64,000 bases of DNA from the NCBI GenBank assembly GCA_947452995.1, contig CANGEV010000010.1, positions 4,182-68,181 on the forward strand, in the 5' to 3' direction. A program made the position numbers and the translations under genes. Positions 26,136 to 63,772 of this stretch are shown here, one piece after another (positions within the stretch are counted from its first letter, which is position 1; each line of letters begins with the position of its first letter). The stretch comes from Chitinophagales bacterium. GTDB lineage: Bacteria; Bacteroidota; Bacteroidia; Chitinophagales; CAIODY01. A model generated the notes under the pieces. That model worked only from the letters and a program-made list of their open reading frames with translations, ran no database searches and was not told the origin of the DNA.

Positions 26136-26344
26136 TTTATTTGTGTTATTTTTGTTCTAATTAATAGGTAACAGCAAGAAAATGAATGCTTCATAAAACG
26201 TATTTCTTTTAATGAGGCAAACCTTTGTCTGAACGACCTTTTAACTCAGTTAAAATACAAAACATTTACTTAAAAACGGAGACTTGTAACCGTAAAAAAC
26301 AGGGCGTATCCGAAAAGCCAAATGAGTAGGGAAACAACTGCGAA

Positions 26345-26770
26345 ATGAAAAATTTATTTGTCTTTTTTTTGTTATTTACATCGTTCTCAGCTTCATCTCA
26401 AATCTATTTTAAAAACAACACTGAAGAACCAGTAAAATTAGCTTTTTGCAAATATTATGACGTTGATGGCTCTAAGTATTGGGGTTGTGCAGGGTGGTAT
26501 TATGTTGAACCAGGTGATAATATTGTTGTTTCATCTTCCATTGGACTATATGATAATATTTATTACTATGCTGAATCAACTGTCAGTGATAAAAAATATC
26601 AAGGAACTACTACATTTTTAGTAGATCCAACAGATAAGTTTTTTATTAAAAATGCAGATAAAGAGTATCAAATGAAAATAAATCCTAATTTTATTTGGTA
26701 TAAATTTCGCCATTTAGATATGCAACAAACGATGTTCCAAATGTCATATACAATTGAACTTAATTATTAA
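26345..26770 (+). CDS. Small secreted protein, possibly DUF1036-like
   Basis: 141 aa with a signal peptide (FLLFTSFSASSQ). The pattern IYFKNNTEEPVKLAFC...YWGCAGWYYVEPGDNIVV...IYYYAES resembles DUF1036 as I recall it. Confidence 0.4.
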   Translation: MKNLFVFFLLFTSFSASSQIYFKNNTEEPVKLAFCKYYDVDGSKYWGCAGWYYVEPGDNIVVSSSIGLYDNIYYYAESTVSDKKYQGTTTFLVDPTDKFFIKNADKEYQMKINPNFIWYKFRHLDMQQTMFQMSYTIELNY

Positions 26771-45401: not shown

Positions 45402-46933
<1,532 letters not shown>

Positions 46934-47041
46934 TTAGAGTCGCTCTGTGTAATTTTTACATAGGTTTAACGACTTGTTGTTTCCTCCATTATTTCATAAA
47001 TGCTGTATATGCTGCGTAATTAAGCAAGCAAATTCTTACGC

Positions 47042-47116
47042 AGTCTCGTAGCTCAGCTTGGTTAGAGCACTACACTGATAATGTAGGGGTCGGCAGTTCA
47101 AATCTGCCCGAGACTA
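47042..47116 (+). tRNA. tRNA-Ile (anticodon GAT)
   Basis: I folded the cloverleaf by hand. The acceptor is AGTCTCG/CGAGACT, the anticodon loop is CTGATAA and the T-loop is TTCAAAT. No CCA is encoded. Confidence 0.93.
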
Positions 47117-47165
47117 CTTATCGCAGAAAACAGTGCCACTAAGTTGGCATCGTTTAAAGCCATTA

Positions 47166-47239
47166 GGGGGTGTAGCTCAGCTGGCTAGAGCACTAGCTTT
47201 GCAAGCTAGGGGTCATCGGTTCGACTCCGTTCACCTCCA
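47166..47239 (+). tRNA. tRNA-Ala (anticodon TGC)
   Basis: The acceptor GGGGGTG/CACCTCC carries the G3:U70 identity pair, and the anticodon loop is TTTGCAA. The T-stem has one U-U mismatch (47216/47230). Confidence 0.93.
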
Positions 47240-47242
47240 CTA

Positions 47243-47285
47243 CGTTAACTTCGGTTAACAGAAGTTCTTTGACATATTGGTAAAT
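47243..47285 (+). promoter_or_regulatory. Spacer hairpin, boxA-like element and 5' half of the 23S processing stem
   Basis: The hairpin is GTTAAC-TTCG-GTTAAC (47243-47258), and the boxA-like element is GTTCTTTGACATATTGG (47264-47280). GACATATTGGTAAAT (47271-47285) is complementary to ATTTACCAATATGTC (50297-50311). TTGAAGTAATTAG (47367-47379) is complementary to CTAATTACTTCAA (50267-50279). Confidence 0.55.
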
Positions 47286-47393
47286 CTCAAATTAATAATG
47301 AGATAACACTCACAACACATTTTATTATGTGTTAAATTTATTTATAAGAAGTCTTTTCTTTATAAGTTGAAGTAATTAGGCAACTAAGATACT

Positions 47394-50256
<2,863 letters not shown>

Positions 50257-50319
50257 ATTTTTTTTTCTAATTACTTCAATCTTATATTGATTCGTTATTT
50301 ACCAATATGTCTAACCTTT

Positions 50320-50431
50320 TTATGGCGACTATGCAGTGCGTGTTCACCCCTTCCCATTCCGAACAGGGTCGTTAAGCCGCACATGGCCTATGGTACTGTA
50401 CAACAATACGGGAGAGTGGGTTGTCGCCAAA
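50320..50431 (+). rRNA. rrf: 5S ribosomal RNA
   Basis: Helix I is GGCGAC (50324-50329) paired with GTCGCC (50423-50428). The conserved CCCATTCCGAACAGGG and GGTACTG...GGGAGAGT blocks are present. The ends are accurate to about 3 nt. Confidence 0.9.
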
Positions 50432-50440
50432 TCTTTATTT

Positions 50441-50475
50441 AAAGCCGATAGCTAATAACTATCGGCTTTTTTTTT
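50441..50475 (+). terminator. rRNA operon terminator
   Basis: The hairpin is AAAGCCGATAG-CTAATAA-CTATCGGCTTT, followed by T x9. Confidence 0.85.
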
Positions 50476-50520: not shown

Positions 50521-51474
50521 ATGAACAGCTCCAATCGCTTTAAAATCCTCGTCCTCGACGATATCCATCCAGTCTTTTTTAAAGAACTGTGTAATTCCAA
50601 TTGTTCCTTTTCTAAACATCCAGATTGGTCCTATGACCAAATTTTACTCAATATTCATAAATTCGATGCTGTAGTTGTTAATTCCAAAACAAGCGTGGAT
50701 GCTAAACTTATTCAATTAGGAACTAAACTAAAAGTTATTGCAAGACCAGGTAGTGGCATGGAGAATATAGACCTTGTATTTGCTTTTAATCGTGGAATTC
50801 AATGCTTTAATTCCCCTGAAGGTAATGCAAATGCAGTCGCAGAACACGCGCTTGCACTCTTACTTACCTTAAGTAATCGTCTTCATGTTGCTCTCCCTCA
50901 AGTTAAAAATAAACAGTGGCTACGTCTTGAAAATACAGGATTTGAATTAAAAAATAAAACGATAGGTATTGTCGGCTTTGGACATACAGGTTCAGCCTTC
51001 GCAAAGCTCGCAAATGCCCTTGGAATGAAGGTTTTTGCCTACGATAAATATCGTTATGATTTTAATTGCGACTATGTAGAGAAAGTCGATTTAAATAAAC
51101 TACTAAAGTATTCTGATGTAATTTCTTTACATCTTCCTTTAACAGCGGAAACTACCTCCTTTTTTAATACTAATTTGGTCAGGAAATTGAAAAAACACAG
51201 TATTATTATTAATACTTCTCGGGGTAAAGTTATGGATTTAGATGCCTTAAAAGCAGGGTTCGAAACTCAGAAAATATGTGCTGCAGCGTTAGATGTTTTG
51301 CCTGTCGAACCTTTGAAATCCTTTATTAAAGCTAGTCCTGAGCTTTTCAGTTGGCTCAAACAAAACCCCGATATTATCCTCTCTCCACATATTGCTGGAT
51401 GGTCCGTTGAAGCTAAATTTTTAATGGCAAAAATTTTGGCGGAACGGCTCAAAAAAAGTTTAATTTTTCATTAA
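50521..51474 (+). CDS. D-isomer-specific 2-hydroxyacid dehydrogenase family protein
   Basis: 317 aa. It has the NAD motif GIVGFGHTGSAF, the catalytic region INTSRG...LDV and HIAGWS. Confidence 0.85.
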   Translation: MNSSNRFKILVLDDIHPVFFKELCNSNCSFSKHPDWSYDQILLNIHKFDAVVVNSKTSVDAKLIQLGTKLKVIARPGSGMENIDLVFAFNRGIQCFNSPEGNANAVAEHALALLLTLSNRLHVALPQVKNKQWLRLENTGFELKNKTIGIVGFGHTGSAFAKLANALGMKVFAYDKYRYDFNCDYVEKVDLNKLLKYSDVISLHLPLTAETTSFFNTNLVRKLKKHSIIINTSRGKVMDLDALKAGFETQKICAAALDVLPVEPLKSFIKASPELFSWLKQNPDIILSPHIAGWSVEAKFLMAKILAERLKKSLIFH

Positions 51475-51489
51475 CATAAGTTATCTTTG
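51459..51489 (+). promoter_or_regulatory. Candidate promoter of the TBDR-like / T9SS-cargo / PorV-like operon
   Basis: TTTA (51459-51462), a 19-nt spacer, then TATCTTTG (51482-51489). The ATG at 51514 is 24 nt downstream. Confidence 0.45.
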
Positions 51490-51513
51490 GCAACCTATAA
51501 TCTATTTTTTCGT

Positions 51514-54500
51514 ATGGCCTTATCTAACTCTATTTTCAAGCGCCTGTTGCTATTAGCAATATTCGTGTCTGTGGGATTCGCAGCGATCGCTCAAAAAGGC
51601 TCTATCACCGGAACTGTACTTGATGCAGCTACTGGTAAGCCGTTAGACTTCGCTTCTGTAATGGTATTGCAAGAAGGTTTGTTGAAAGGTGGTAACTACA
51701 CTGAAACAGACGGTAGCTTCATTGTAAAACCACTCGATCCAGGTTCTGGATACACTGTAGTCATAACCTTCACAGGCTATGATACAATTAAGCAATCAGG
51801 GATCCTTGTTTCAGCTGATCACGAGACACGTTTGGGTGATTTGAAAATGTCTAAGCCAACAGCCGGTGGTAAAAGCCTCGGTACAGTTAATATCGTTTAT
51901 ACGCGTAAGGCTGTAGATCCGGATCATACAGAAGATAAAAAAGTGGTTTCTCGTGAAGAGATTAAGCAAATGGCCGTTCGTGGTGTAAGCGATATCGCTG
52001 CTGCGGGTACTGCAGGTACCTATCAGAAAGATGGTGGGTCTGGTATCTCCATCAAAGGTGGCCGTGATAACGCAACACGTGTAATTGTAGATGGTATTCC
52101 TCAACGTGCTGGTATTGGTCTTCCGCAAGGAGCTCTTGAAGCAGTTGAAATTGTTACAGGCGGTATCCCTGCGAAATATGGTGACGCGATTGGCGGTATC
52201 ATCAACGTAACTACTCGTGGTGCTTCTAAGAAATTCTCAGGTGGAGCTGAATTGGCTACTTCAAAATTCTTGGATCCTTATGGATACTATTTGGCTTCAT
52301 TAAACTTGAACGGTCCCTTATTGTTCGATAAAAAAGACCCTAATGCAAAAGATCGTAAACCATTGGTAGGATATAATCTTTCAATGGAATACCAGCATGA
52401 TAAAGATCCGAATCCTTCTGCTATTGGTATGTGGAAGGTTAAGGATAGCGTTTTAGCTAAAATTCAAGCTAACCCATTATTATTGAATCCTCAAACTGGT
52501 TTGGGTTATGTCCGTAGTGCAGATACACTTACTTTCCATTCAATGGAGCACATCGCGTACAAACAAAATTCTGCAAATGATGCAGCGCGTATTGCTGGTA
52601 AATTAGATTTTAACCTTAAGCCAGGATTGATTCTTGCGGTAGGTGCAAACGCATCTTATACTCGCTACCATCAATATATTCGTGAGTATGCGATGTTTAA
52701 TCCAGAAAACAATCCTGAGGTACGCGACTTTTCATGGCGTGTTTTTGCTCGTATGACGCAAAAATTGGGTCAGCAGACATCTGATAAAGTGGATGCAGCC
52801 GGTAATAAAATGCGTAATACTTCGCCTATTCAAAATGCTTATTATACATTACAATTAGACTATTCTCAAGATAATCATAAGCGTTGGGATGATTCACATC
52901 ATTTCAATGCATTTAATTATGGTTATGTTGGTAAATTCGAAACTAAAACACAACGCGTTTATATTGATTCTGTTTCTTCTGAAACAGGTCAAGTATTTAA
53001 AGTGCAAGGATTGGATCGCGATACATTAGTTGTTTTCACACCAAGTGCAGTTAATCAAACCTTGAGCAACTACACGAACCAGTACATGGGTATTGTTGGT
53101 GATTCACGTTCTAACATGTTCAATTCTAGTATTGATAATATCTTGTTCTTCGGAGCAATGGTAAATGGTCGTCGCCCTGGTGACGTAAACAGTTTGTGGT
53201 ATAATACTGGTCGTCAATATGCAGGTTATGATTATTCTCAAAACCAACAAATACGTGTGATGGTGGATGGTTCCCTTGACTTGAAAGTTAAAGGTTCTAG
53301 AAAGCCACACGCAATTGAATTTGGTATGGTTTACGAGCAACGTATTGATCGTGCGTACAGTATCGGAGCTTCTAGCTTGTGGACGCAAATGCGTTTGTTA
53401 GCAAACCGTCAATTGGCTTCTTTGGATAAAAACAACCCGCATTATGTAATGGCTAATGGTGTATTCCAAGATACTATCAATTACGATCGATTATATGTTG
53501 CTAAAGACCAAACGACATTTGATAAAAATCTGCGTCAATCTTTAGGATTGGCCGTAGACAGCAAAGATATCATTGATATCGATGCATTAGATCCTTCTCA
53601 ATTCTCGTTGAGTATGTTTTCTCCAGATGAATTGTTGAACCAAGGTAGCTCGTTGGTATCTTATTATGGATATACATATACTGGAGATAAATTGAAAGGA
53701 AACGTTTCTTTCAACGATTTCTTTACTAAGAAAGAAAACGGAATTTATAAGCGTGAAATTGGGGCTTTCCGTCCTATCTACAATTCAGCATACATTCAAG
53801 ATCGTTTCTCTTTCCGTGATTTGATCTTTAACGTAGGTTTACGTGTAGATCGCTTTGATGCGAATACTAAAGTATTGAAAGATCCTTATTCATTGTATTC
53901 AATTCGTAGTGCTGGTGAAGTTGATGGTGCTCAAAATACAATCAACGGTGGGGCGCATCCTGACAATATCGGTTCTGATTATGCTGTTTATGTGGATGAC
54001 TTCTCTGATCCTAAATCTGCAAATGTTATTGGTTACCGCAGTGGTGATAAATGGTATGATGCAAAAGGGGTGGAATTAAGTGATCCAAGCATCCTTGCTA
54101 AATTGTCTGCTACCAATACAATTTCTCCATTCTTATCAAATCCTAAAGATAAAATCACTGACTCTTTGTTTAACCCAACAAGTTCATTCAAAGATTATGA
54201 TCCGCAGATTACGATCATGCCACGTATCTCTTTCTCGTTCCCAATCAATGATGGTCAAGCTTTGTTCTTTGCACACTATGATGTGTTAGCGCAACGTCCG
54301 CAATCACGTAGCTATATTACTCCTGACGATTATTTATATTTTGAAAACATCGTTGTAGATGCTACCTTGAACAACCCGAATTTGAAGCCTGAAAAAACAA
54401 TCGATTATCAAATCGGTTTCCAACAGGAAGTATCTAAAACGGCTGCATTGAAATTGTCTACGTTCTATCGTGAATATAAAGACATGATTCAGATTATGCG

Positions 54501-55299
54501 TGTGGTGCAAGCATATCCTAAATCTTACCGTACGTTTGGTAATCGTGACTTCGCAACTGTAAAAGGTTTTGAATTGTCATACGACCAACAAAAAACGGAT
54601 AACTTACGTTTCAACGCTGCTTATACATTGTCATTTGCGGATGGTACAGGTTCAAACGACGTATCTCAAGCAAACATGATTAACAACGGTATGCCGAATT
54701 TGCGTACGATTTATCCATTAGCGTACGACGTGCGTCATACTTTCTCCGGTAATATCGATTATCGTTATGGCGAAGGAAAGAACTATAATGGTCCTCGTTT
54801 GAAAATTCATGGTAAATCATATAATATCTTCGAAAACGCAGGTATTAACTTGATCGGTCGTGCTCGTTCTGGTGAGCCTTATACTCGTCAAGGACGTGCT
54901 CGTAACGAAGCATTATTGTCACCTACTGGAACATTGGTATTGGTTGGTACAGTAAACGGTTCTCGTTTGCCTTGGAACTATAAGTTCGACTTGCGTATTG
55001 ATAAAAACTTTACATTAAATGGAGCTACTAAAACTGAAGGTAAAGCTAAAAAGCCTTTATTCTTGAATGCATACTTAACAATCACAAACTTGTTGAACAC
55101 GAAAAACATTCAATCGGTTTATAATTATACGGGTAACCCGAATGATGATGGTTATTTAGGAAGTCCAGGTGCTGCTGCACAGATTGCGGCACAAACTTCT
55201 CCGCAAGCCTTCATCGACCAGTACAATATTAAGGTGAATAATCCTGATAACTATAGCTTACCACGTCGTATTCGTGTAGGTGTCGTGTTTAACTTCTAA
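51514..55299 (+). CDS. Oversized TonB-dependent-receptor-like outer-membrane barrel with a CarboxypepD_reg-like N-terminal domain
   Basis: 1261 aa from ATG 51514, with a signal peptide (FVSVGFAAIAQ). The regulatory-like domain is GSITGTVLDAATGKPLDFASVMV, and the TonB-box-like strand is LGTVNIVYT. Plug motifs are ISIKGGRDNATRVIVDGIP and GGIINVTTRG. The C-terminus is RIRVGVVFNF. Confidence 0.75.
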   Translation: MALSNSIFKRLLLLAIFVSVGFAAIAQKGSITGTVLDAATGKPLDFASVMVLQEGLLKGGNYTETDGSFIVKPLDPGSGYTVVITFTGYDTIKQSGILVSADHETRLGDLKMSKPTAGGKSLGTVNIVYTRKAVDPDHTEDKKVVSREEIKQMAVRGVSDIAAAGTAGTYQKDGGSGISIKGGRDNATRVIVDGIPQRAGIGLPQGALEAVEIVTGGIPAKYGDAIGGIINVTTRGASKKFSGGAELATSKFLDPYGYYLASLNLNGPLLFDKKDPNAKDRKPLVGYNLSMEYQHDKDPNPSAIGMWKVKDSVLAKIQANPLLLNPQTGLGYVRSADTLTFHSMEHIAYKQNSANDAARIAGKLDFNLKPGLILAVGANASYTRYHQYIREYAMFNPENNPEVRDFSWRVFARMTQKLGQQTSDKVDAAGNKMRNTSPIQNAYYTLQLDYSQDNHKRWDDSHHFNAFNYGYVGKFETKTQRVYIDSVSSETGQVFKVQGLDRDTLVVFTPSAVNQTLSNYTNQYMGIVGDSRSNMFNSSIDNILFFGAMVNGRRPGDVNSLWYNTGRQYAGYDYSQNQQIRVMVDGSLDLKVKGSRKPHAIEFGMVYEQRIDRAYSIGASSLWTQMRLLANRQLASLDKNNPHYVMANGVFQDTINYDRLYVAKDQTTFDKNLRQSLGLAVDSKDIIDIDALDPSQFSLSMFSPDELLNQGSSLVSYYGYTYTGDKLKGNVSFNDFFTKKENGIYKREIGAFRPIYNSAYIQDRFSFRDLIFNVGLRVDRFDANTKVLKDPYSLYSIRSAGEVDGAQNTINGGAHPDNIGSDYAVYVDDFSDPKSANVIGYRSGDKWYDAKGVELSDPSILAKLSATNTISPFLSNPKDKITDSLFNPTSSFKDYDPQITIMPRISFSFPINDGQALFFAHYDVLAQRPQSRSYITPDDYLYFENIVVDATLNNPNLKPEKTIDYQIGFQQEVSKTAALKLSTFYREYKDMIQIMRVVQAYPKSYRTFGNRDFATVKGFELSYDQQKTDNLRFNAAYTLSFADGTGSNDVSQANMINNGMPNLRTIYPLAYDVRHTFSGNIDYRYGEGKNYNGPRLKIHGKSYNIFENAGINLIGRARSGEPYTRQGRARNEALLSPTGTLVLVGTVNGSRLPWNYKFDLRIDKNFTLNGATKTEGKAKKPLFLNAYLTITNLLNTKNIQSVYNYTGNPNDDGYLGSPGAAAQIAAQTSPQAFIDQYNIKVNNPDNYSLPRRIRVGVVFNF

Positions 55300-55325
55300 A
55301 ATTGCAAACCATCAACGTTAGATAT

Positions 55326-58300
55326 ATGAAGAGAATAGCTAAATATTTGTGGTTGACGCTTTTGGTAGCTGGAATGGCTACAGCGTCTAAGGCCGACCAG
55401 ATTCATGGTATGAAACCAAGTCGTCCTGTAAATACTAAAGCATCTGCCTGTGCTTCTGCAACAGCGCAAATTGATTTGGACATCAACAACGTTCGTGCAT
55501 TAATCATGAATGGTGGTGATATGTGGTGGGATCGTGGCTTGCAGGTAGCGCGTTATGAAGTGCCAAAAATTGATCCGCCGGGATCAGCTCAATCTGTGAG
55601 TTCATTATTTGCGGCATCCATTTGGGTGGGAGGTATTGATAATGCAGGTAACTTACGTGTTGCTGCACAAACATATCGTCAAGGTGGTAATGACTATTAT
55701 CCTGGTCCGTTGGATGCAACAGGGTCTGTAGATCAACAGACTTGTACCAACTATGATCGTTTCTGGAAGTTAAATCTTACAGATATCCAAACGTACAAAG
55801 CGTTAGGAACAAAAACTGTGTCGAATGTCCCAAAAGCAATTTTGGAATGGCCTGCAAAAGGGAATCCTTACGCTGTAGGTACTAATAGTACTTCATTGGT
55901 TATTAACGATCAATTGGCTCCTTTCTTTGACGTTGATAATGATCAAAGTTACGATCCATTATCAGGTGATTATCCTGCATTCGATCCTACAGATACAACC
56001 GTAATGCCTGATCAAATGATTTGGTGGGTTTATAATGATAAAGGAAATATTCACACGGAGACAACTGCTGATCCAATTGGTTTGCAAGTGAATGCTACTG
56101 CATTTGCTTACTCGACAAACGATGATATCAATAACATGACGTTCTATCGTTATGATTTGTTCAACAAGGGTAACTACACATTGGATAGTGCTTTCATTGC
56201 ACAATGGGTAGATCCGGATTTAGGTTGTGCAAATGATGACTATATTGGTTGTGATACTTCAGGCACAGCAATGGGTAGTGGAACAGGTTTGGGTATTTGT
56301 TATAATGCGGATGCATTTGACGAAGCTTGTCCTGCAGGTTATTTGAGTAATGTTCCGATGGTGGGTATCGACTTCTTCCAAGGTCCTAAAAACGCACAAG
56401 GAAAAGTATTAGGAATGACAGGTTTCTACTACTATTATAATACTACACCTTCTACACAAGCAGATCCGCAAAATGCGGTTCAGTTTTATGGTTATATGAC
56501 CGGTACATGGCGTGATGGTACTGCATTTACATATGGTGGTAACGCACACTTAGGTGCATCCACAACCCATTTCGTTTACGCAGATGCTCCGAATTTATCA
56601 GGAACAAAACCTGGTTCTGGCTTGCCTTATTGGTCAATGTGTAATCCTACAGTTACACCGGGTGACTTGCGCGTTGTTGAATCTTCGGGTCCTTTCCAAT
56701 TGATTCCAGGTGCTAAGCAAACAGTGACTGTCGGTGTAGTTTGGGTTCGTCCAATTCAATACCCATGTCCTTCTTTCGCTGCAATTCTAAATGCGGATCG
56801 TAAAGCTCAAGGCTTGTTCGATGCAAACTTCCGTATCTTGAACGGTCCTGATGCTCCGGATATGTCTGTTAAGGAGTATGATAAGCAATTGGTAATTACG
56901 TTGACAAACCCTGCATCATCCAATAACTATGGTGAAAAATACATGGAGTTTGACAATACCATCTTGCCTTACGTTTCTGCAAATCCTGCAGCTCCAACAC
57001 ACCAAGATACATTAGATGCATCTTATCGTTTTGAGGGATACCAAATTTTCCAATTGAAGGATAATACCATATCGGCAGCAGAATTGCATGACATGAGCAA
57101 GGCTCGTGAAATTGCACAAGTTGATATTAAGAATGGAGTAACTAAGATTGTGAACTTTTCGAAAGATTTGAACATGAACGCCAACGTGCCAACTTTGGAA
57201 GTTAGCGGTACAGATCAAGGTATCAAGCATAGTTTTGTTGTAAATTCAGATGCCTTTGCAACAGGTAATACTGATTTGATTAATCACAAGACCTATTACT
57301 ATATGGTTATTGCATATTCATACAATAACTATAAGCAATTCTCTGACGCAGATCCTACTTCACAAGATGATCCTTATAAGCCGTCTCGTCGTCGTGTACG
57401 TGTTTATAGTGCAATTCCTCATATTGTTGATCCTGAAATGGGCGGTACTATTTTAAATTCTAAATATGGTGATCAACCGATTATCACTCGTGTTGAAGGT
57501 TACGGTAACGGAGGTAATTTCTTGAATTTGTCTCAGACATCTATCGACAAAATCATGCAAGATAATTTTGCTGATCGTTTGACATATGACACATTAGGCG
57601 GGCCAGTGAATGTCATGGTTACAGACCCAAAAAATGTAATGCCTTATAAATACAATTTGTACTTGATCGATTCAGTAGAAACTGCAATTGTACCAAACAA
57701 AAAAGATAGTTTGATTGCAACGGCATACTGGAAATTAGTGAATACGTCAACGGGTGAAGTACGTTATTCAGAAACCGACATGCAATTGGCTAATGAGCAA
57801 ATCTTTGATGATTGGGGCTTCTCTGTGAATGTAAAGCAAATAGCCTATGCAGGAACTAAGTTTAGTACTGGTGCAGGTTCATTTGTGAACATGGCTGAGA
57901 AGAATGGTTTCATAGGCTCTGAAGTTAAATTTGATGTTACTAAGATTTGGTACGGTGGTGTTCCTGATCAAGATGGCGACAATGAAATGAACTGGATTCG
58001 TTCAGGTACCTACAAATCTTCTGCTAATGCTTCATGGTCTGACTATGACATGGCTACTTCAAATCCTGCGGATAAAGATGCTGATTTTGAAAAGGTAGTA
58101 GAGGGCACATGGGCACCTTATCGTTTATGTGCGCATCAAAACGCGTTCCCAACGAGTGGAGCTGATTTGTCAGCAGCTATACTTCCTGCATTCGATGCAA
58201 CTTCGGTTAATTCCAACGCACACAAGTTGAATAACTTACCTAGCGTGGATATCGTTTTCACGAATGACAAATCTAAATGGACACGTTGCGTAGTAGTAGA

Positions 58301-59318
58301 AACAGATCCTGATCCAGTTCGTGTAGGATTGGCAAATGGTTTGAAATTACAAGCTCGCGCACATGATAGCTGGGTTTCTCCAAATGATTTGAATGCTGAT
58401 GGTTCACCTAAATATACTGAAGCATCAGTAGCGCATCCTGCTGGCTTGTCTTGGTTCCCTGGTTATGCAATTAACTTAGAAACAGGAGAGCGTTTGGATA
58501 TCATGTTTGGTGAAGACTCTTGGTTGTTAAGTGATAATGGAAATGATATGTTGTGGAATCCAACTTCTACTATGTTTGGAAAGACAGGTGAGGCTAAATA
58601 TGGTGGACGTCACTATATTTATGTAATGAATCATCGTTATGCTTACAATGGAAATGACCAGGATGGTAATCCGGCAACGAATTCTCCTGTGGCTTATTTG
58701 ACAAATCTTACATCAGGCAATGCGAATATTATTCGTACTGTTTATGAAGATGCACAATGGGTGAATGTACCTTTAGCGATTTCATCTTTCGGAATTAATT
58801 TAAAGTCTGCTAAGGAAGGAATTATCCCTTCTCCAGTGACTGTTAAATTGCGTGTCGCTAAGCCTTATGCTAAATACACTACAGGTTTGAATGCAGATCA
58901 TCCAAACTATCCATTGTATTCATTTGATATGGGTAATTTGGCTGCAAAAACTGCGAATGATTCAATGGCAAAATCTGCATTGGATTTGATTAACGTTGTA
59001 CCAAATCCGTACTATGCTTATTCTAACTATGAAACTAGTCAGATTGATACGCGTGTAAAGATTACCAATTTGCCTCCAAAATGTACGATCACTATCTATT
59101 CTGTAGATGGAACTATGATTCGTCAGTACAAGCGTGATAATGATTCAGAAACATTCTTGGATTGGGATTTGAAGAATAGTGCAAACATCCCTGTATCGAG
59201 TGGATTGTACTTGATTCATATTTCTGCACAGGGATTAGGTGATAAAGGGAATGCTCCTGCACAGCGTGTCATCAAATGGTTTGGTGTTATGCGTCCAATT
59301 GATTTAAATACTTTCTAA
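55326..59318 (+). CDS. 1330-aa secreted protein of unknown function with a T9SS type-A C-terminal sorting domain
   Basis: ATG 55326 gives MKRIAKYLWLTLLVAGMATASKA (signal peptide). The last ~95 aa are VVPNPYYAYSNYE...CTITIYSVDGTMIRQY...DWDLKNSANIPVSSGLYLIHISAQG...VIKWFGVM, the Por_Secre_tail pattern. Confidence 0.7.
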   Translation: MKRIAKYLWLTLLVAGMATASKADQIHGMKPSRPVNTKASACASATAQIDLDINNVRALIMNGGDMWWDRGLQVARYEVPKIDPPGSAQSVSSLFAASIWVGGIDNAGNLRVAAQTYRQGGNDYYPGPLDATGSVDQQTCTNYDRFWKLNLTDIQTYKALGTKTVSNVPKAILEWPAKGNPYAVGTNSTSLVINDQLAPFFDVDNDQSYDPLSGDYPAFDPTDTTVMPDQMIWWVYNDKGNIHTETTADPIGLQVNATAFAYSTNDDINNMTFYRYDLFNKGNYTLDSAFIAQWVDPDLGCANDDYIGCDTSGTAMGSGTGLGICYNADAFDEACPAGYLSNVPMVGIDFFQGPKNAQGKVLGMTGFYYYYNTTPSTQADPQNAVQFYGYMTGTWRDGTAFTYGGNAHLGASTTHFVYADAPNLSGTKPGSGLPYWSMCNPTVTPGDLRVVESSGPFQLIPGAKQTVTVGVVWVRPIQYPCPSFAAILNADRKAQGLFDANFRILNGPDAPDMSVKEYDKQLVITLTNPASSNNYGEKYMEFDNTILPYVSANPAAPTHQDTLDASYRFEGYQIFQLKDNTISAAELHDMSKAREIAQVDIKNGVTKIVNFSKDLNMNANVPTLEVSGTDQGIKHSFVVNSDAFATGNTDLINHKTYYYMVIAYSYNNYKQFSDADPTSQDDPYKPSRRRVRVYSAIPHIVDPEMGGTILNSKYGDQPIITRVEGYGNGGNFLNLSQTSIDKIMQDNFADRLTYDTLGGPVNVMVTDPKNVMPYKYNLYLIDSVETAIVPNKKDSLIATAYWKLVNTSTGEVRYSETDMQLANEQIFDDWGFSVNVKQIAYAGTKFSTGAGSFVNMAEKNGFIGSEVKFDVTKIWYGGVPDQDGDNEMNWIRSGTYKSSANASWSDYDMATSNPADKDADFEKVVEGTWAPYRLCAHQNAFPTSGADLSAAILPAFDATSVNSNAHKLNNLPSVDIVFTNDKSKWTRCVVVETDPDPVRVGLANGLKLQARAHDSWVSPNDLNADGSPKYTEASVAHPAGLSWFPGYAINLETGERLDIMFGEDSWLLSDNGNDMLWNPTSTMFGKTGEAKYGGRHYIYVMNHRYAYNGNDQDGNPATNSPVAYLTNLTSGNANIIRTVYEDAQWVNVPLAISSFGINLKSAKEGIIPSPVTVKLRVAKPYAKYTTGLNADHPNYPLYSFDMGNLAAKTANDSMAKSALDLINVVPNPYYAYSNYETSQIDTRVKITNLPPKCTITIYSVDGTMIRQYKRDNDSETFLDWDLKNSANIPVSSGLYLIHISAQGLGDKGNAPAQRVIKWFGVMRPIDLNTF

Positions 59319-59340
59319 AGAATTCAAACGCACGATCAAT

Positions 59341-60429
59341 ATGAAACTAATTAATAAAATTGCTTTAGGTCTTGCTGTTACAGCTTTGGGTTGTTTTACA
59401 ACTGCAGAAGCTGGAAATAAAGATCGTACCGGTCAGGCCGGCGCATACGAATTGCTAATCAATCCTTATGCTAGAAGTGGTGGATGGAGTGGTTTGAATA
59501 CTGCTTGTATTAAAGGTATAGAGGCTTCACGTATTAATGTGGCTGGTTTATCTTTTACTGAAAAAACGGAAGTCGTTTTTGCACGTAGCAGTTATTTAGC
59601 ATTAAAAGGTAGCGATATGGCTATTAATAACTTCGGGATTGCACAACACGTAGGTGGCGAAGACGGAGGTGTTTTAGGCTTGTCAGTGATGTCAATGACT
59701 TTTGGTGAAATTCCAATTACGACTACGGAAGTTCCGGATGTTGTCGGAGGGGTTGCTACATTAGGAACCTATAAGCCGCAGTTCATGAATATTGGCTTAT
59801 CTTATGCTAAGAAGTTTTCTGATGCGATTCAAGGGGGAATGGGTGTTACTATTATTTCAGAAGCTATTCCAAATGCAAAAGCACAAGGTGTTGCATTGGA
59901 TGCGGGTATTCAATATGTAACTGGTCCGAAGGATAATATCCACTTTGGTATTTCATTGCGCAATGTGGGTACGCCGATGCAGTTCCGTGGAGATGGTTTA
60001 TCATTCTCAAACATAGCGTTAAATGGAAGATATTTGTTAACGCAAGAAATGCGTTCTCAAATGTTTGAATTGCCATCTCTTTTAAATATTGGTTTAGCTT
60101 ATGATTTCTATCCTGTGCCTAAAATGGCGGACGTTCATCGTTTGACTGTTGCAGGTAATTTTACTTCAAACTCATTTACCAAAGATCAGTTCGGATTAGG
60201 AATGGAATATGGCTATCGTAATACATTGATGGCTCGTGTGGGTTATCGTTACCAGCAAGGTGGTTTGAATGTCGCAACTCGTGGCAATGTTTATAACGGC
60301 TTACGTGCAGGTATTACATTTGAAACTCCATTGAAGAAGGATGGTCCTGTTTTCGGATTGGATTATGCTTACGGAGCAACAAATCCATTTAATGGCACGC
60401 ATACCATTGGTGTTCGTTTAGGATTGTAA
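59341..60429 (+). CDS. PorV/PorQ-family (FadL-like) T9SS-associated outer-membrane barrel protein
   Basis: 362 aa with a signal peptide. The N-terminal pattern is GNKDRTGQAGAYELLINPYARSGGWSGLNTACIKGIEASRINVAGLSF. The rest is alternating beta-strand sequence. Confidence 0.6.
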   Translation: MKLINKIALGLAVTALGCFTTAEAGNKDRTGQAGAYELLINPYARSGGWSGLNTACIKGIEASRINVAGLSFTEKTEVVFARSSYLALKGSDMAINNFGIAQHVGGEDGGVLGLSVMSMTFGEIPITTTEVPDVVGGVATLGTYKPQFMNIGLSYAKKFSDAIQGGMGVTIISEAIPNAKAQGVALDAGIQYVTGPKDNIHFGISLRNVGTPMQFRGDGLSFSNIALNGRYLLTQEMRSQMFELPSLLNIGLAYDFYPVPKMADVHRLTVAGNFTSNSFTKDQFGLGMEYGYRNTLMARVGYRYQQGGLNVATRGNVYNGLRAGITFETPLKKDGPVFGLDYAYGATNPFNGTHTIGVRLGL

Positions 60430-60452
60430 TTCAATTTAAAATTTTAATATGG

Positions 60453-60490
60453 CAGGGTGCTTGTTCGCAAGTACCCTGTTTTCTTTTTTT
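60453..60490 (+). terminator. Rho-independent terminator closing the three-gene operon
   Basis: The hairpin is CAGGGTGCTTG-TTCG-CAAGTACCCTG (11 bp including one G-U), followed by TTTTCTTTTTTTT. Confidence 0.85.
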
Positions 60491-60511: not shown

Positions 60512-60982
60512 ATGGCTTACATTTATTTGTCGCAAGAAGGAATGGACAATTTGAAAAATGAGTTGAACGAGTTGCGTACTAAGGGACGTCAAGAAATTGC
60601 TCGTCAAATCGCTGAAGCGCGCGATAAAGGCGATTTAAGTGAGAATGCTGAATATGACGCAGCGAAAGAAGCGCAAGGTCATCACGAGGCTAAAATTGCC
60701 AAATTAGAAGATATGCTTTCTAATGCTCGTGTGATGGACACTTCGACATTGGACCTTTCAAAGGTTTCGGTGATGTGTAGTGTTCGTGTGAAGAATTTGA
60801 AGATTAAAAAAGAACAAGTGTTTCAGTTAGTGTCTGAAAAAGAAGCGAACTTGAAAGAAGGTAAAATATCAGTGAATTCACCAATTGGAAAAGGACTATT
60901 GGGAAAGAAAGTGGGTGAAAAAGCCGAAATCACTGTGCCAGCAGGTAATTTAGAATTTCAAATTCTTGAAATTTTCATTTAA
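60512..60982 (+). CDS. greA: Transcription elongation factor GreA
   Basis: ATG 60512 gives MAYIYLSQEGMDNLKNELNELRTKGRQEIARQIAEARDKGDLSENAEYDAAKE. The upstream extension in the track would run through the terminator. Confidence 0.95.
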   Translation: MAYIYLSQEGMDNLKNELNELRTKGRQEIARQIAEARDKGDLSENAEYDAAKEAQGHHEAKIAKLEDMLSNARVMDTSTLDLSKVSVMCSVRVKNLKIKKEQVFQLVSEKEANLKEGKISVNSPIGKGLLGKKVGEKAEITVPAGNLEFQILEIFI

Positions 60983-60984
60983 TT

Positions 60985-61377
60985 ATGCCTAGTATTTTTT
61001 CACGCATCATTAATAAAGAAATCCCTTGTCATTTGATTGCAGAAAACGATCAATACATGGCGTTTTTGGATGTCATGCCTTTACGTGAAGGGCACACATT
61101 GGTAGTACCGAAAAATGAAGTAGACTATATTTTTGATTTGTCTTCAGAAGAGTTGGCTGGTTTATTAGAATTTGCACGACCCATTGCAAAAGCGATTGAG
61201 AAGGTGGTTCCCTGTCAGCGAATAGGATTGAGTGTTATTGGCTTGGAAGTGCCTCATACGCACGTGCACTTAGTACCGATTGATACAGCGAATGATTTGA
61301 ATTTTACACGTACAAAAATGCCGGCAGATCAAGGTAAGTTGGCTGAGGTGGCGGCGAAGATTCGTGCACAACTTTAA
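60985..61377 (+). CDS. HIT-family (histidine triad) protein
   Basis: 130 aa. The histidine triad is VPHTHVHLVP. Confidence 0.9.
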   Translation: MPSIFSRIINKEIPCHLIAENDQYMAFLDVMPLREGHTLVVPKNEVDYIFDLSSEELAGLLEFARPIAKAIEKVVPCQRIGLSVIGLEVPHTHVHLVPIDTANDLNFTRTKMPADQGKLAEVAAKIRAQL

Positions 61378-61396: not shown

Positions 61397-63772
61397 ATGA
61401 AGGCTAGAAGAATTCTTGTATGGATAGGAATCTTTTTAGCCTTTTTTATTTTTTGTCAATCAAATATATATGCGCAGTCTTGTTTGCGTGGTCGAATAAG
61501 ATTTAGCAATCATGATGATAAAGGACAAGCATTAATTGGCTCAAATAATCCGCCATTGGCAGATATTTATGCGAATGATTTACAGGTAGGCACGAGTGTT
61601 GATTCGTTAGGTTATTTTCATATATGTGATATCCCGCGTGGGGAGCATATTTTTACTGTTTCAAGTATTGGTTTTGAAACAGTCCGGTTCACGATTAAAA
61701 CACAATCTGACACCTTCGTGGAGATTAGATTATTACAACGTGTTTTAGAAACTGCAGAATTAACTGTTACGGGTGTAACCCGTGCAGGTGATATGAAGAC
61801 GAATGCACAAGCATTGCAAATCGTGGACACGCGGATATGGGAGCGAAATAATTCACAAGGCTTGGTACAGGTTCTTGCCACACAGCCGGGAATTTCAGCG
61901 ATAAGTACTGGTGCTGCTATTGCTAAGCCGGTTATTAGAGGTTTAGGCTATAATCGCATTGTGACGGTGAGTGATGGTGTTAGGCAGGAAGGTCAACAAT
62001 GGGGAGACGAGCATGGTATTGAAATCGATGACTTTGGTATTGCGAAAGTGGAAGTATTGAAGGGGCCCGGCAGCTTGATGTATGGAAGTGATGCAAATGC
62101 AGGGGTGATAAATATTATAGATCCTTTACCTGATAGAAAGCAATTGATACGAGGTAAAGTAATGTTAGGGTATCAAGATAATAATGGTCAGCGTAATACT
62201 GCTGCTGTTTTAAGTGGAGGGAAAAATCATTGGTCTTATGCAGTGCGAACCTCTTCGAAAGATGCGCATTGTTATCAAAATAATAGAGATGGTTTTGTGG
62301 CGAATAGTGGCTTCAGTAATTCTTCGATGAAGGCAACGCTTACTACTCATCGTAAGTGGGGTTATACGCAGCTTGTTTATTCAGCCTATCGGATGAAGCT
62401 TGGAATAATAGAAGGTGAACGTGATAGCAGTGGGCATTTTGTTACGCCGCAATTGAGTGGTGGAAATATTGTTTTGCGAAGCAATACAGACAGTATATAT
62501 AAGTTATATGATTTACAGTTTCCGCAGCAAGAAATATGGCATCAAAAAATTGTTTCGAATAGTCGTTTATTTTTTGGAAAACGAAATTTGAAAATGATTT
62601 ACGCATTTCAAGAGAACATACGAAAAGAGATAGCTTCTGCATTCACCATGAATGCGCCTGATTTGGTTATGCGCTTAAGAACGGGAACCTATCAATTACA
62701 GTTGAATGGTTCGACCATGAAGGAACGTAATTGGTCGGTGGGTATGAGTGGGATGGTACAGCGTTCGTTGAATTTAGGAGCAGAAAAATTGATAGCTGAT
62801 TACGCGTTAGTGGATGCGGGTGTTTACGGACTTTTATTTGGTGAATGGAAGGGTGTGTATTGGCAAACGGGCTTACGTTATGATAATCGATGGATGCATT
62901 GGAATGGGATAGGAAAAGCATTTGGCGGATTTTCAGGTAGTGCAGGAGCGAGCTATAAATTCGCGAAGACGCATTATGTGAAGTTGAATTTTTCAAAGGG
63001 GTTTCGAGCACCGAATGCGGCAGAGTTGACCAGCGATGGAGTGCACGAAGGTGCTCTACGTTATGAAATTGGGAATGCTAATTTAAAGGCTGAAAGTTCT
63101 TTGCAGGTAGATGTTCAGTTACTTATGAACTGGCAACATTTTTCGATTAGTAGCAGTTTGTTTCAAAATAACATCAGTAATTTTATTTATATAACGAAGC
63201 TTCAGAATTATAAGGGCTTGGATTCAATGACGCAAGACGTTCCTGTGTTCGAATTTAATGGTCAGCGGGCGCTTTTGCGTGGTTTTGAGTTGCAATACGA
63301 TTATCATCCTCACCCATTGGATTGGTTGCATATTGGGCAAAGTTTGTCGTATGTTCAAGCGCACTTTGTTGGGGTGCAGGACATGGAGCGATATTATTTA
63401 CCAAGTATTCCGCCTATGCGTTTGAACAGTAATATAGAAGTTGAGTTAAGTAAGTTGGGGCATTATTTAAGCAATGTAGAATTAGGAATGAATTATATGT
63501 ATGTGTGGCAGCAAAAATTGATATACAGTGCTTATGGAGCGGAGAATGCTACGGCAGCTTATGGCTTGTTGAATGCACAAATTTCAACAGATATTAATAC
63601 AAAGGTTTTCGAAAGTTTAAATGTGGTGATCAGCGGGAATAACTTATTAGATGAGGTGTATCAGGATCATTTAAGTCGATTGAAGTATGCACCGATTAAT
63701 TATTCGAATGGTTATGGAGGCGTTTGGAATATGGGGCGGAGTATATCGGTTCAGGTAATGATAGGGATATAA
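61397..63772 (+). CDS. TonB-dependent receptor
   Basis: 791 aa with a signal peptide and a CarboxypepD_reg-like N-terminus. The plug has VRQEGQQWGDEHGIEID and VEVLKGPGSLMYGSDA, followed by a 22-strand-type barrel. Confidence 0.85.
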   Translation: MKARRILVWIGIFLAFFIFCQSNIYAQSCLRGRIRFSNHDDKGQALIGSNNPPLADIYANDLQVGTSVDSLGYFHICDIPRGEHIFTVSSIGFETVRFTIKTQSDTFVEIRLLQRVLETAELTVTGVTRAGDMKTNAQALQIVDTRIWERNNSQGLVQVLATQPGISAISTGAAIAKPVIRGLGYNRIVTVSDGVRQEGQQWGDEHGIEIDDFGIAKVEVLKGPGSLMYGSDANAGVINIIDPLPDRKQLIRGKVMLGYQDNNGQRNTAAVLSGGKNHWSYAVRTSSKDAHCYQNNRDGFVANSGFSNSSMKATLTTHRKWGYTQLVYSAYRMKLGIIEGERDSSGHFVTPQLSGGNIVLRSNTDSIYKLYDLQFPQQEIWHQKIVSNSRLFFGKRNLKMIYAFQENIRKEIASAFTMNAPDLVMRLRTGTYQLQLNGSTMKERNWSVGMSGMVQRSLNLGAEKLIADYALVDAGVYGLLFGEWKGVYWQTGLRYDNRWMHWNGIGKAFGGFSGSAGASYKFAKTHYVKLNFSKGFRAPNAAELTSDGVHEGALRYEIGNANLKAESSLQVDVQLLMNWQHFSISSSLFQNNISNFIYITKLQNYKGLDSMTQDVPVFEFNGQRALLRGFELQYDYHPHPLDWLHIGQSLSYVQAHFVGVQDMERYYLPSIPPMRLNSNIEVELSKLGHYLSNVELGMNYMYVWQQKLIYSAYGAENATAAYGLLNAQISTDINTKVFESLNVVISGNNLLDEVYQDHLSRLKYAPINYSNGYGGVWNMGRSISVQVMIGI

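Follow-up and report, generated by a model that had tools for sequence, protein, structure and literature searches.

The 64,000-nucleotide stretch of Chitinophagales DNA analysed here (the window) contains three consecutive genes on the same strand, hereafter the trio (Table 1). The open reading frames (ORFs) of the window leave gaps of only 26 nt between genes 1 and 2 and 22 nt between genes 2 and 3, and a hairpin with a T-run starts 21 nt past the gene 3 stop, closing the trio. ORF coordinates and terminator scan agree on this arrangement, which had been described in an earlier note on the sequence. For the stem, given there as 11 bp, the scan finds 13 pairs, six of them G-C, in a stem-loop at 60451–60480 with the loop TTCG, followed by TTCTTTTTTT. 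This was the highest-ranked terminator-like site of the region.

Table 1. Features of the trio and of its flanks, in window coordinates.
Feature	Coordinates	Strand	Description
Gene 1	51514–55299	+	ORF, 1261 aa from ATG; TonB-dependent-receptor-like outer-membrane protein
Gene 2	55326–59318	+	ORF, 1330 aa; secreted protein with T9SS-type C-terminal domain (CTD)
Gene 2 CTD (residues 1216–1330)	58971–59315	+	PorZ-like T9SS CTD
Gene 3	59341–60429	+	ORF, 362 aa; PorV/PorQ-family outer-membrane beta-barrel
Promoter-like element, Bacteroidota type	51459–51489	+	TTTA (−33-like), N19, TATCTTTG
Intrinsic-terminator-like hairpin and T-run	60451–60490	+	Terminator scan; sequence read directly
D-2-hydroxyacid/phosphoglycerate dehydrogenase-like gene	50521–51474	+	Upstream context; NCBIfam TIGR01327, 243.8 bits, below equivalog cut-off
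greA	60512–60982	+	Downstream context; NF001263 GreA, 182 bits
HIT-family gene	60985–61377	+	Downstream context; HIT profile matches

The promoter-like element is present as previously written, with the −33-like TTTA at 51459–51462 and TATCTTTG, to be compared with the −7 consensus TAnnTTTG, at 51482–51489. Part of it lies within the 3′ end of the upstream gene, and 24 nt separate its end from the gene 1 ATG. By itself, however, a single site of this kind is not significant, with 70 matches to TAnnTTTG in the window versus 70.7 expected. Among related loci, the −7 motif showed a modest enrichment upstream of gene 1 (37 of 132 loci, compared to 58 of 660 coding control windows and 5 of 125 regions preceding gene 2). 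The dehydrogenase-like gene ends 39 nt before gene 1 on the same strand and the scan of the region found no terminator between them, so that transcriptional read-through into the trio may occur; a terminator was found ahead of the dehydrogenase-like gene, at 50441–50469. The description of the trio as a self-contained operon is thus unproven. The dehydrogenase-like gene precedes gene 1 in about 23 of 75 trio loci, as well as in the related locus L164, a synteny limited to part of the lineages. Across orders, most relatives have the greA/HIT region downstream of the trio, and the HIT gene comes next after gene 3 in most genome loci and in 37 of 41 metagenome loci. In L164 the downstream flank differs, and the trio is still intact.

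The gene 1 product comprises a signal peptide, a CarboxypepD_reg domain (residues 30–112), a plug (142–229) and a barrel ending in a terminal F. Its Pfam matches were all above the gathering cut-offs (PF13620 CarboxypepD_reg, 44.7 bits; PF07715 Plug, 36.3 bits; PF00593 TonB barrel, 40.1 bits), and a TonB-box-like stretch, LGTVNIVY, corresponds to a family consensus of LxEVxV. The CarboxypepD_reg and Plug domains were found in all 31 family members considered, and the family has a median length of 1244 aa. No match to the SusC/RagA models was obtained in the profile search. The receptor hallmarks noted earlier were therefore all recovered, and the sequence strongly supports gene 1 as a barrel of the TonB-dependent-transporter type that has both a plug and a TonB box.

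The gene 2 product consists of a signal peptide (residues 1–23), a body (24–1215) that is nearly all-beta and has no recognised fold, and a T9SS-type CTD from about residue 1216 to the end. As the earlier note had it, the body contains no recognised domain: the Pfam profile search returned none there, and Pfam, NCBIfam, and PDB sequence and fold comparison revealed neither a SusD-like domain in the protein nor any other with a recognisable binding or catalytic role. It has no sequence relative in the PDB, and its AF2 model (pLDDT 87.2) gave only weak and partial PDB fold matches, while relatives of the protein form 6839 cluster representatives at E ≤ 1e-3. The “clear type-A CTD” claimed previously needs to be qualified. 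The window protein does not reach the curated cut-off of either type-A model (TIGR04183, 20.6 vs. 23; PF18962, 12.3 vs. 27), but family matches and structure both identify a T9SS CTD. The CTD region of the PorZ model (approximately 656–757) was matched by 17 of 24 gene 2 relatives, with E values down to 5e-10, and the PorU CTD by nine of the 24. The top PDB fold match for the AF2 model of residues 1200–1330 was PorZ (5M11; E = 1.1e-5, 23% identity); among the T9SS structures, the translocon-bound NucA CTD (8GLK_D) and then PorU (6ZA2) came next. Gene 2 can thus be described, with strong support, as a Sec-exported protein with a PorZ-type T9SS CTD. The CTD is also its most conserved segment (62% identity to the query vs. 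43% for the body; median identities across loci of 56% and 37%, respectively). The sole segment with pLDDT < 50 in the isolated CTD model falls within an invariant PNPYYAYSxYE stretch, which is what one would expect of a surface that binds a partner.

As had been proposed, gene 3 belongs to the PorV/PorQ family by the model NF033709 (126.3 bits vs. a cut-off of 90), but it fails the models for PorV (48.6 vs. 250), PorQ (41.2 vs. 220), PorV2 (29.1 vs. 325) and the PorP family (24.4 vs. 90.55). It is therefore not the housekeeping porV and, judged by sequence, constitutes a distinct clade that is neither PorV, PorQ, PorV2 nor PorP/SprF. The family has a conserved mature N-terminus, GNKDRxGQAGAxELLINPWARSSGW. 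Since the Cys of the signal peptide is not conserved, we also rejected the possibility that gene 3 encodes a lipoprotein.

When loci were collected with gene 2 as the query, all three genes were present in the same order and on the same strand in 75 of 81 cases, and the median gaps were 28 and 35 nt; starting from gene 1, gene 2 lay directly downstream in 69 of 69 loci with room for it and gene 3 followed in 41 of 41 (each scan kept the 80 best-scoring loci, a biased sample). These loci cover several Bacteroidota orders, and the trio occurs in at least 592 species genomes. The trio is thus an uncharacterised operon kept whole across hundreds of Bacteroidota species, and the gene order strongly supports its inheritance as a tight, dedicated unit across orders. 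NCBI-style annotation would yield only generic names, as expected for an ordinary scattered T9SS cargo gene that happens to lie beside a housekeeping porV and a generic receptor; that reading is practically untenable, refuted by this synteny together with the scores of gene 3, which lie far below the cut-offs of the PorV and PorQ equivalog models. Neither of the two sequence outcomes that the earlier note had named as refuting its reading was observed.

The distance matrices of the three proteins are correlated with r = 0.84–0.91, compared to 0.34–0.45 for the neighbouring HIT gene, a control that is short (130 aa) and noisy, and the compared genes all share the phylogeny of one operon. The strongest partial distance correlation linked gene 1 with the body of gene 2 (partial r = 0.62). 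It is thus very unlikely that functional coupling is confined to genes 2 and 3, with gene 1 an unrelated TonB-dependent receptor on the shared transcript: apart from this correlation, such a scenario is at odds with the invariable succession of the three genes in the searches from gene 1, and with the length of gene 1 as a family-specific trait. It would agree with the occurrence of gene 2 paralogues that carry the same CTD and stand alone, lacking a barrel or receptor of their own, so that a neighbouring gene 1 is not a strict requirement for the gene 2 passenger.

The same gene order can be found in published maps. The alginate PUL of Rhodothermus marinus contains a TonB-dependent receptor, a T9SS type-A protein and a PorV/PorQ protein in succession (PMC9530828), a precedent overlooked in the earlier statement that type-A cargo genes are normally scattered, and a xylan locus of the same organism has a receptor followed by a CTD protein (PMC6987092). 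In both papers, the genes are given as hypothetical, without interpretation. The alginate triad matches the trio in gene order and annotation classes. Its PorV/PorQ protein is nearly equal in size to gene 3 (351 vs. 362 aa), while genes 1 and 2 have smaller counterparts there, a receptor of 934 aa and a CTD protein of 726 aa, and, unlike the trio, the triad is embedded among alginate lyases.

The closest parallels for genes 2 and 3 are the PorZ–PorQ and PorU–PorV pairs of the Porphyromonas gingivalis T9SS attachment complex, in which a large T9SS-exported protein keeps a type-A-like CTD that is bound by a 14-strand barrel of the PorV/PorQ family (reviewed in PMC10202324). By analogy with PorZ–PorQ in particular, it is well supported that the gene 2 protein would be held by its own PorV-like barrel, and porU lies directly upstream of porV, as does gene 2 of gene 3. 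By HMM as well as by fold, the PorZ CTD is the nearest to that of gene 2, but the likeness is confined to the CTD: the two beta-propellers of PorZ and the C25 peptidase of PorU are unrelated to the gene 2 body. In addition, gene 3 scores below the cut-offs for both PorV and PorQ, and no TonB-dependent barrel is linked to either pair. Cargo-specific PorV-like barrels encoded beside their cargo are also found in SprB–SprF and other pairs of type-B CTD and PorP/SprF proteins; however, the gene 2 CTD is type-A/PorZ-like rather than type B, and gene 3 falls below the PorP/SprF cut-offs. In the Bacteroidota BAM complex, a FadL/PorV-like 14-strand barrel, BamG, holds the large extracellular protein BamH beside a bigger barrel (PMC12578637), but there the bigger barrel is BamA, BamH is a surface lipoprotein, and neither has a sequence link to the trio.

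Gene 3 could instead be a dedicated shuttle that takes gene 2 from the translocon to PorU, where the CTD would be cleaved and gene 2 released or lipid-linked. PorV, from the same family, is described as shuttling type-A cargo (Glew 2017, as cited in PMC12578637), and the gene 2 CTD also resembles the translocon-bound substrate CTD in 8GLK_D. We nevertheless consider this improbable, because the CTD has its closest counterparts in PorZ and PorU, whose CTDs are retained, and is better conserved than its passenger, which is unexpected for a disposable signal, and because a private shuttle for one cargo would leave the obligatory linkage to gene 1 unexplained. From this similarity and conservation, we infer that the gene 2 CTD is probably retained.

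Genes 1 and 2 recall SusC/SusD, RagAB and BtuB–BtuG, in which a TonB-dependent barrel is encoded directly upstream of a large surface partner and capture is followed by import, a logic that may likewise apply to the trio. However, a SusC/RagA signature is missing from gene 1, and gene 2, which is nearly all-beta, contains neither a SusD nor a BtuG-like domain, so that “SusC/SusD-like” is at most a functional analogy, in which a role of gene 2 as a SusCD-like lid is plausible. Unlike the lipoprotein partners of SusC/SusD-type systems, gene 2 has no lipobox; the T9SS would deliver it, and a third protein would anchor it. The trio also lacks the adjacent regulator or enzymes of such systems: none were found next to it, and its setting is greA/HIT and ribosomal genes, not a PUL. 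Taken together with its usual single-copy state beside these housekeeping genes, this suggests a constitutive and general function rather than that of a substrate-specific PUL.

Such a setting, and the wide distribution of the trio and of gene 2 clusters, would also suit a housekeeping envelope or surface-structure module in which gene 1 does not import nutrients. The trio would then make or maintain a surface layer or glycan, or serve in signalling across the envelope, or else the gene 1 barrel would act in export. Gene 1 shares its N-terminal CarboxypepD_reg architecture with Oar, a TonB-dependent transporter of Myxococcus that acts in export of the protease PopC (PMC6434023). We regard this as a credible but unlikely alternative: the plug and TonB box are conserved throughout the gene 1 family, as in importers, gene 2 has its own T9SS-type export signal and would not need gene 1 for export, and in R. 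marinus the same gene order occurs in bona fide polysaccharide utilisation loci.

We tentatively favour, at close to an even chance, a reading of the trio as one outer-membrane and surface module for ligand capture and TonB-driven import, in which gene 2 is delivered by the T9SS and held by gene 3. The gene 2 product would cross the outer membrane via the T9SS and then stay attached to the barrel of gene 3 by its retained CTD, in the way PorZ is bound to PorQ and PorU to PorV, keeping the 1200-residue body at the cell surface. There, this body and the barrel of gene 1 may cooperate: the former would capture or process a ligand, and the latter would import it with TonB energy. If this is true, the trio would parallel transporter and surface-partner systems such as SusCD and BtuBG, except that the partner would reach the surface and be anchored there through the T9SS route, not as a lipoprotein.

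Genes 1, 2 and 3, which encode a TonB-dependent-receptor-like barrel, a secreted protein with a T9SS-type C-terminal domain (CTD) and a PorV/PorQ-family barrel, respectively, were confirmed to lie on the same strand with gaps of only 26 nt (genes 1 and 2) and 22 nt (genes 2 and 3), and to be closed by a hairpin and T-run. This hairpin, downstream of gene 3, was the sole terminator detected in the trio by the terminator scan. Since the gaps are short, the terminator follows only gene 3, and the gaps remain short in relatives (medians of 28 and 35 nt), there is indirect support for co-transcription of the trio as a single unit, which may extend further upstream. The earlier note had described a self-contained operon. 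The layout of the trio and its terminator are compatible with this, but on the upstream side, where read-through is possible, a 2-hydroxyacid-dehydrogenase-like gene ends 39 nt before gene 1, and the scan showed no terminator in that gap; the closest upstream terminator is the one behind the rRNA operon.

A promoter-like element had also been proposed ahead of gene 1. The element is present as written, but matches to the −7 consensus TAnnTTTG number 70 over the whole window, compared to 70.7 expected, so that a single match proves nothing, and the motif was rejected as evidence by itself. Among relatives, 37 of 132 loci had the −7 motif no more than 150 nt ahead of gene 1, versus 58 of 660 coding control windows and 5 of 125 regions ahead of gene 2. 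This modest enrichment is consistent with a promoter ahead of gene 1 and none within the trio.

Features in and around the trio, with positions in the window
Feature	Position	Strand	Description
DUF805 cis-regulatory RNA motif (Rfam)	26271-26336	+	66.6 bits; gathering score 51.1
779-aa protein	42265-44604	+	AgmC_N-like N-terminal region, 207 bits, under cut-off of 275
rRNA operon	45402-50432		Complete; directly upstream of locus
16S	45402-46933
tRNA	47042-47116
tRNA	47166-47239
23S	47391-50260
ORF inside 23S gene	49692-50129	-	Probably spurious
5S	50321-50432
Terminator of rRNA operon	50441-50469		Hairpin/T-run
2-hydroxyacid-dehydrogenase-like gene	50521-51474	+
Promoter-like element	51459-51489		TTTA-N19-TATCTTTG
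Gene 1	51514-55299	+	ORF, 1261 aa counted from ATG
Gene 2	55326-59318	+	ORF, 1330 aa
Conserved tail of gene 2	59215-59315	+	Residues ~1297-1330
Gene 3	59341-60429	+	ORF, 362 aa
Terminator-like hairpin	60451-60480		13 pairs, 6 G-C; loop TTCG; T-run behind; top-scoring regional site
greA and HIT-family gene	60512-61377
Second TonB-dependent receptor	61397-63772	+	791 aa, ordinary size; directly behind HIT gene

Relatives of gene 2 were collected with a degenerate-pattern scan, using one genome per species, which yielded at least 592 genomes. We examined the best-scoring 80 of these together with L001, a contig 95% identical to the window; the loci are thus not a random sample. Genes 1, 2 and 3 were found in the same order and on the same strand in 75 of these 81 loci. 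By record title (MAG labels are approximate), the trio occurs in Chitinophagales, Saprospiraceae/Lewinellaceae, Flavobacteriales (Cryomorphaceae and Schleiferiaceae), Bacteroidales and Lentimicrobiaceae. The six remaining loci comprise L078, whose 3.6-kb contig stops ahead of gene 3, and five paralogues of gene 2 that stand alone among unrelated neighbours (checked for L009 and L059). A reciprocal scan from gene 1 in metagenomes placed gene 2 directly downstream in all 69 loci with room for it, gene 3 in 41 of 41 and the HIT gene in 37 of 41. The synteny of the trio in relatives holds from either gene, and the three-gene linkage is obligatory.

The stand-alone paralogues (L008, L009, L059, L065 and L074; 1300–1400 aa) have no adjacent receptor or PorV-like gene, and carry the same CTD at 55–61% identity. 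At least one of them comes from a MAG that also carries the trio (L008 and L006, respectively), and these paralogues may share the barrel of the trio in trans.

In most relatives, greA and the HIT-family gene follow gene 3, in several orders, so that the conserved block comprises genes 1, 2 and 3, greA and HIT. The link of greA and HIT to the trio can be broken: in locus L164, the trio is intact though the flanks differ, with ribosomal protein genes downstream. Distance matrices for the trio proteins from 84 loci were correlated with r of 0.84–0.91, compared to 0.34–0.45 for the adjacent HIT gene, and the strongest partial correlation (0.62) was between gene 1 and the body of gene 2. These correlations are soft evidence, since HIT is short and all of the genes share one phylogeny. 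That gene 1 is functionally independent of the other two genes is, in our judgement, very unlikely.

The assignment of gene 1 as a TonB-dependent receptor was upheld by matches to CarboxypepD_reg (44.7 bits, exceeding the Pfam cut-off), Plug (PF07715, residues 142–229; 36.3 bits, cut-off 23.9) and the TonB-dependent β-barrel (PF00593; 40.1 bits, cut-off 27), and by its C-terminal phenylalanine. CarboxypepD_reg and Plug were present in all 31 aligned relatives, and PF00593 was matched in 19 of them. The pre-plug sequence LGTVNIVY (family consensus LxEVxVxxYKxPLID) is TonB-box-like by eye only. The large size of gene 1 is a family trait, the median length of complete relatives being 1244 aa. No SusC/RagA model was among the NCBIfam matches of gene 1, and its sequence had no match in the PDB. 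The second receptor, behind the HIT gene, is a heme/hemoglobin-type one (TIGR01785; 135 bits, short of the cut-off) and also occurs in contig L001.

Gene 2 has an N-terminal Sec signal peptide, MKRIAKYLWLTLLVAGMATASKA, read from the sequence without a predictor, and no lipobox was seen upon inspection. A Pfam search at E ≤ 10 returned nothing beyond weak CTD matches, and a profile search against PDB sequences found no relative of known structure. The AF2 model of residues 24–1215 is nearly all-β and confident (pLDDT 87.2, pTM 0.71). Foldseek comparison of the body with the PDB gave only weak partial matches to β-sandwich domains of the GH116/GH94 type; with TMq ≤ 0.16, no such enzyme function was assigned. 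The family is large, with 2268 matches among the scored candidates and, in a single-sequence search of 1.84 billion representatives, 6839 clusters at E ≤ 1e-3, of which 2142 passed E ≤ 1e-30. “Hypothetical protein” is the label of nearly every member that bears a source name.

Six longer relatives (P0040, P0062, P0074, P0109, P0111 and P0114; 1365–1637 aa) align with gene 2 only over its first ≈58%. P0062, P0109 and P0111 bear Big_9, two of these also Cadherin_5, while no Pfam domain was recorded in P0040, P0074 and P0114. Residues ≈1–770 may therefore constitute a separable module that is reused with other C-terminal parts. The closest named relatives of gene 2 are just 54–59% identical, and one homologue (P0342) is from a cultured organism, Polluticoccus soli. 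The host itself belongs to an uncultured Bacteroidota lineage: the whole window is identical to the metagenome-derived contigs ENA ERZ27280182 and Logan ERR3761240, and a 95–96%-identical relative is found in GCA_013562115.1, an assembly of >800,000 contigs (L001, L162 and L163 among our loci).

Within gene 2, conservation is highest in the CTD, with 62% identity to the query compared to 43% for the body, and medians of 56% and 37%, respectively, across loci. The earlier note had called it a clear type-A domain. On the established models, gene 2 scored below threshold (TIGR04183, 20.6 bits, cut-off 23; PF18962, 12.3 bits, cut-off 27), as did five relatives scored singly on TIGR04183 (17.3–19.6 bits), but HMM matches across the family and the predicted fold agree with a T9SS-type CTD. 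TIGR04183 was matched at E ≤ 0.01 in 12 of 24 relatives, the NCBIfam model T9SS_PorZ in 17 of 24 and the PorU model in nine of 24; at the same threshold, gene 2 of the window matched neither PorZ nor PorU. In all seven members inspected, the PorZ and PorU matches joined the final ≈100 residues to the CTD part of each model: positions ≈656–757 of NF052228 (PorZ; 24–34 bits, cut-off 260) and ≈980–1077 of NF033707 (PorU; 14–22 bits, cut-off 420). With similarity confined to the CTD, identification of gene 2 as PorZ or PorU itself was rejected.

In the AF2 model of residues 1200–1330 (pLDDT 76.8), the best match in the whole PDB was PorZ (5M11; E = 1.1e-5, 23% identity over 111 columns), and further matches were to 8GLK_D, the NucA substrate CTD in the T9SS translocon, and to PorU (6ZA2). 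The fold by itself is not exclusive, since FlgD/FN3-type sandwiches score nearby. On profile and model together, the gene 2 CTD is PorZ-like. The only segment of the isolated CTD model with pLDDT <50 lies in an invariant stretch, PNPYYAYSxYE, which fits a candidate binding surface that would become ordered upon contact with a partner. At ≈115 aa, the CTD is longer than usual, and closes with an additional conserved stretch, KWFGVMRPIDL(D/N)TF, whose last residue, F, is nearly invariant and which is reminiscent of a β-signal.

The core T9SS genes lie beyond the window. The 779-aa protein upstream of the rRNA operon carries a sorting domain of T9SS type B (TIGR04131; 46.9 bits, cut-off 35), showing that the host uses T9SS signals. 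Elsewhere in the window, the DUF805 RNA motif lies just upstream of an ORF at 26345–26770.

Gene 3 matched the PorV/PorQ family model NF033709 over residues 37–360 of its 362 (126.3 bits, cut-off 90), as had been anticipated. Scores on the specific models were far lower: 48.6 bits for PorV (NF033710, cut-off 250), 41.2 for PorQ (NF033711, cut-off 220), 29.1 for PorV2 (NF052325, cut-off 325) and 24.4 for PorP/SprF (TIGR03519, cut-off 90.55), while PF11751 gave 22.0 (cut-off 22.3). Gene 3 thus belongs to a separate clade of the family. It is not the housekeeping porV beside non-syntenic neighbours that the earlier note had considered, given the PorV and PorQ scores and the conserved trio. Gene 3 as a lipoprotein was rejected, because conservation does not extend to the Cys of the LGC in the signal peptide. 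The start of the mature protein is conserved and reads GNKDRxGQAGAxELLINPWARSSGW. The gene 3 sequence had no match in the PDB, and a gene 3-family HMM applied to all ORFs of 165 fetched sequences recovered trio orthologues and no other PorV-family genes. These model scores, and the synteny seen from both gene 2 and gene 1, already contradict the view of gene 2 as ordinary, scattered T9SS cargo, which we consider extremely improbable.

The trio is a real, strongly conserved and apparently undescribed three-gene module; we found no published paper that names or interprets it. Its members belong to broad families only (TonB-dependent receptors, T9SS CTD proteins and the PorV/PorQ family), and fail the tests for SusC, SusD, PorZ, PorU, PorV, PorQ, PorV2 and PorP/SprF. 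The proposed SusC/SusD likeness does not hold at the level of family: unlike SusC/RagA and SusD/RagB, gene 1 has no SusC/RagA match, and gene 2 is nearly all-β without a SusD-like domain or lipobox. In function, the gene 1–gene 2 pair may nevertheless act like SusCD or BtuBG. Published maps show similar gene orders, which favour the view that the architecture is an uptake module. The alginate locus of Rhodothermus marinus has the same three-gene order beside alginate lyases (PMC9530828), a likeness of order and annotation, and in the xylan locus of R. marinus, a hypothetical protein with a CTD is encoded behind a TonB-dependent receptor (PMC6987092), a likeness by gene map. For Porphyromonas hmu-type clusters, a figure legend includes T9SS and porV/Q genes (PMC12106395).

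For genes 2 and 3, the nearest functional likeness is to PorZ–PorQ and PorU–PorV. Among T9SS proteins, CTD retention is known for two, PorZ, bound to PorQ, and PorU, bound to PorV (PMC10202324). In the most likely mechanism, gene 2 would be exported through the T9SS, its CTD would be kept on the gene 3 barrel, by analogy with PorZ–PorQ, and its body, together with the TonB-powered gene 1 barrel, would capture and import a ligand. Anchoring of gene 2 on the gene 3 barrel is well supported by the analogy, and the lid and import role is plausible; the complete chain of export, retention and import we hold tentatively, at slightly less than an even chance. It is considerably more likely that the trio forms one functional surface module in which the gene 2 CTD has gene 3 as its cognate partner. 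If gene 3 were instead a private shuttle, the CTD would be cleaved after delivery, which seems quite improbable. A housekeeping role at the surface or in the envelope, with gene 1 not importing, or exporting like Oar, a precedent for a TonB-type barrel in export (PMC6434023), is also unlikely, if less so.

A broader reading, which we regard as possible but doubtful, is that the trio represents the ancient housekeeping form of a general, unnamed architecture of the FCB group, in which the partner of the TonB-dependent transporter is a T9SS-exported, CTD-anchored protein. The extracellular partner would then not be a lipoprotein, but would have its retained CTD plugged into a private PorV/PorQ-family barrel. 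If so, modules of receptor, CTD protein and PorV/Q barrel in polysaccharide utilization loci (PULs), such as the R. marinus alginate locus, would be substrate-specific versions, and the T9SS would be directly involved, in a structural role, in assembling nutrient-import machines.

The Bacteroidota have two hallmark systems that are usually handled apart, the T9SS and TonB-dependent uptake aided by surface partners. As a candidate for physically linking the two, the trio is concrete and testable, and it would supply a third class of cognate CTD–barrel pair beside PorZ–PorQ and PorU–PorV. Gene 2 represents a large unannotated family, with thousands of clusters at 50% identity, >1200 residues, a confident predicted fold without a match and no Pfam model, and the trio suggests a new reading of genes listed as “hypothetical” in PULs that lack SusD, for example in Rhodothermus.
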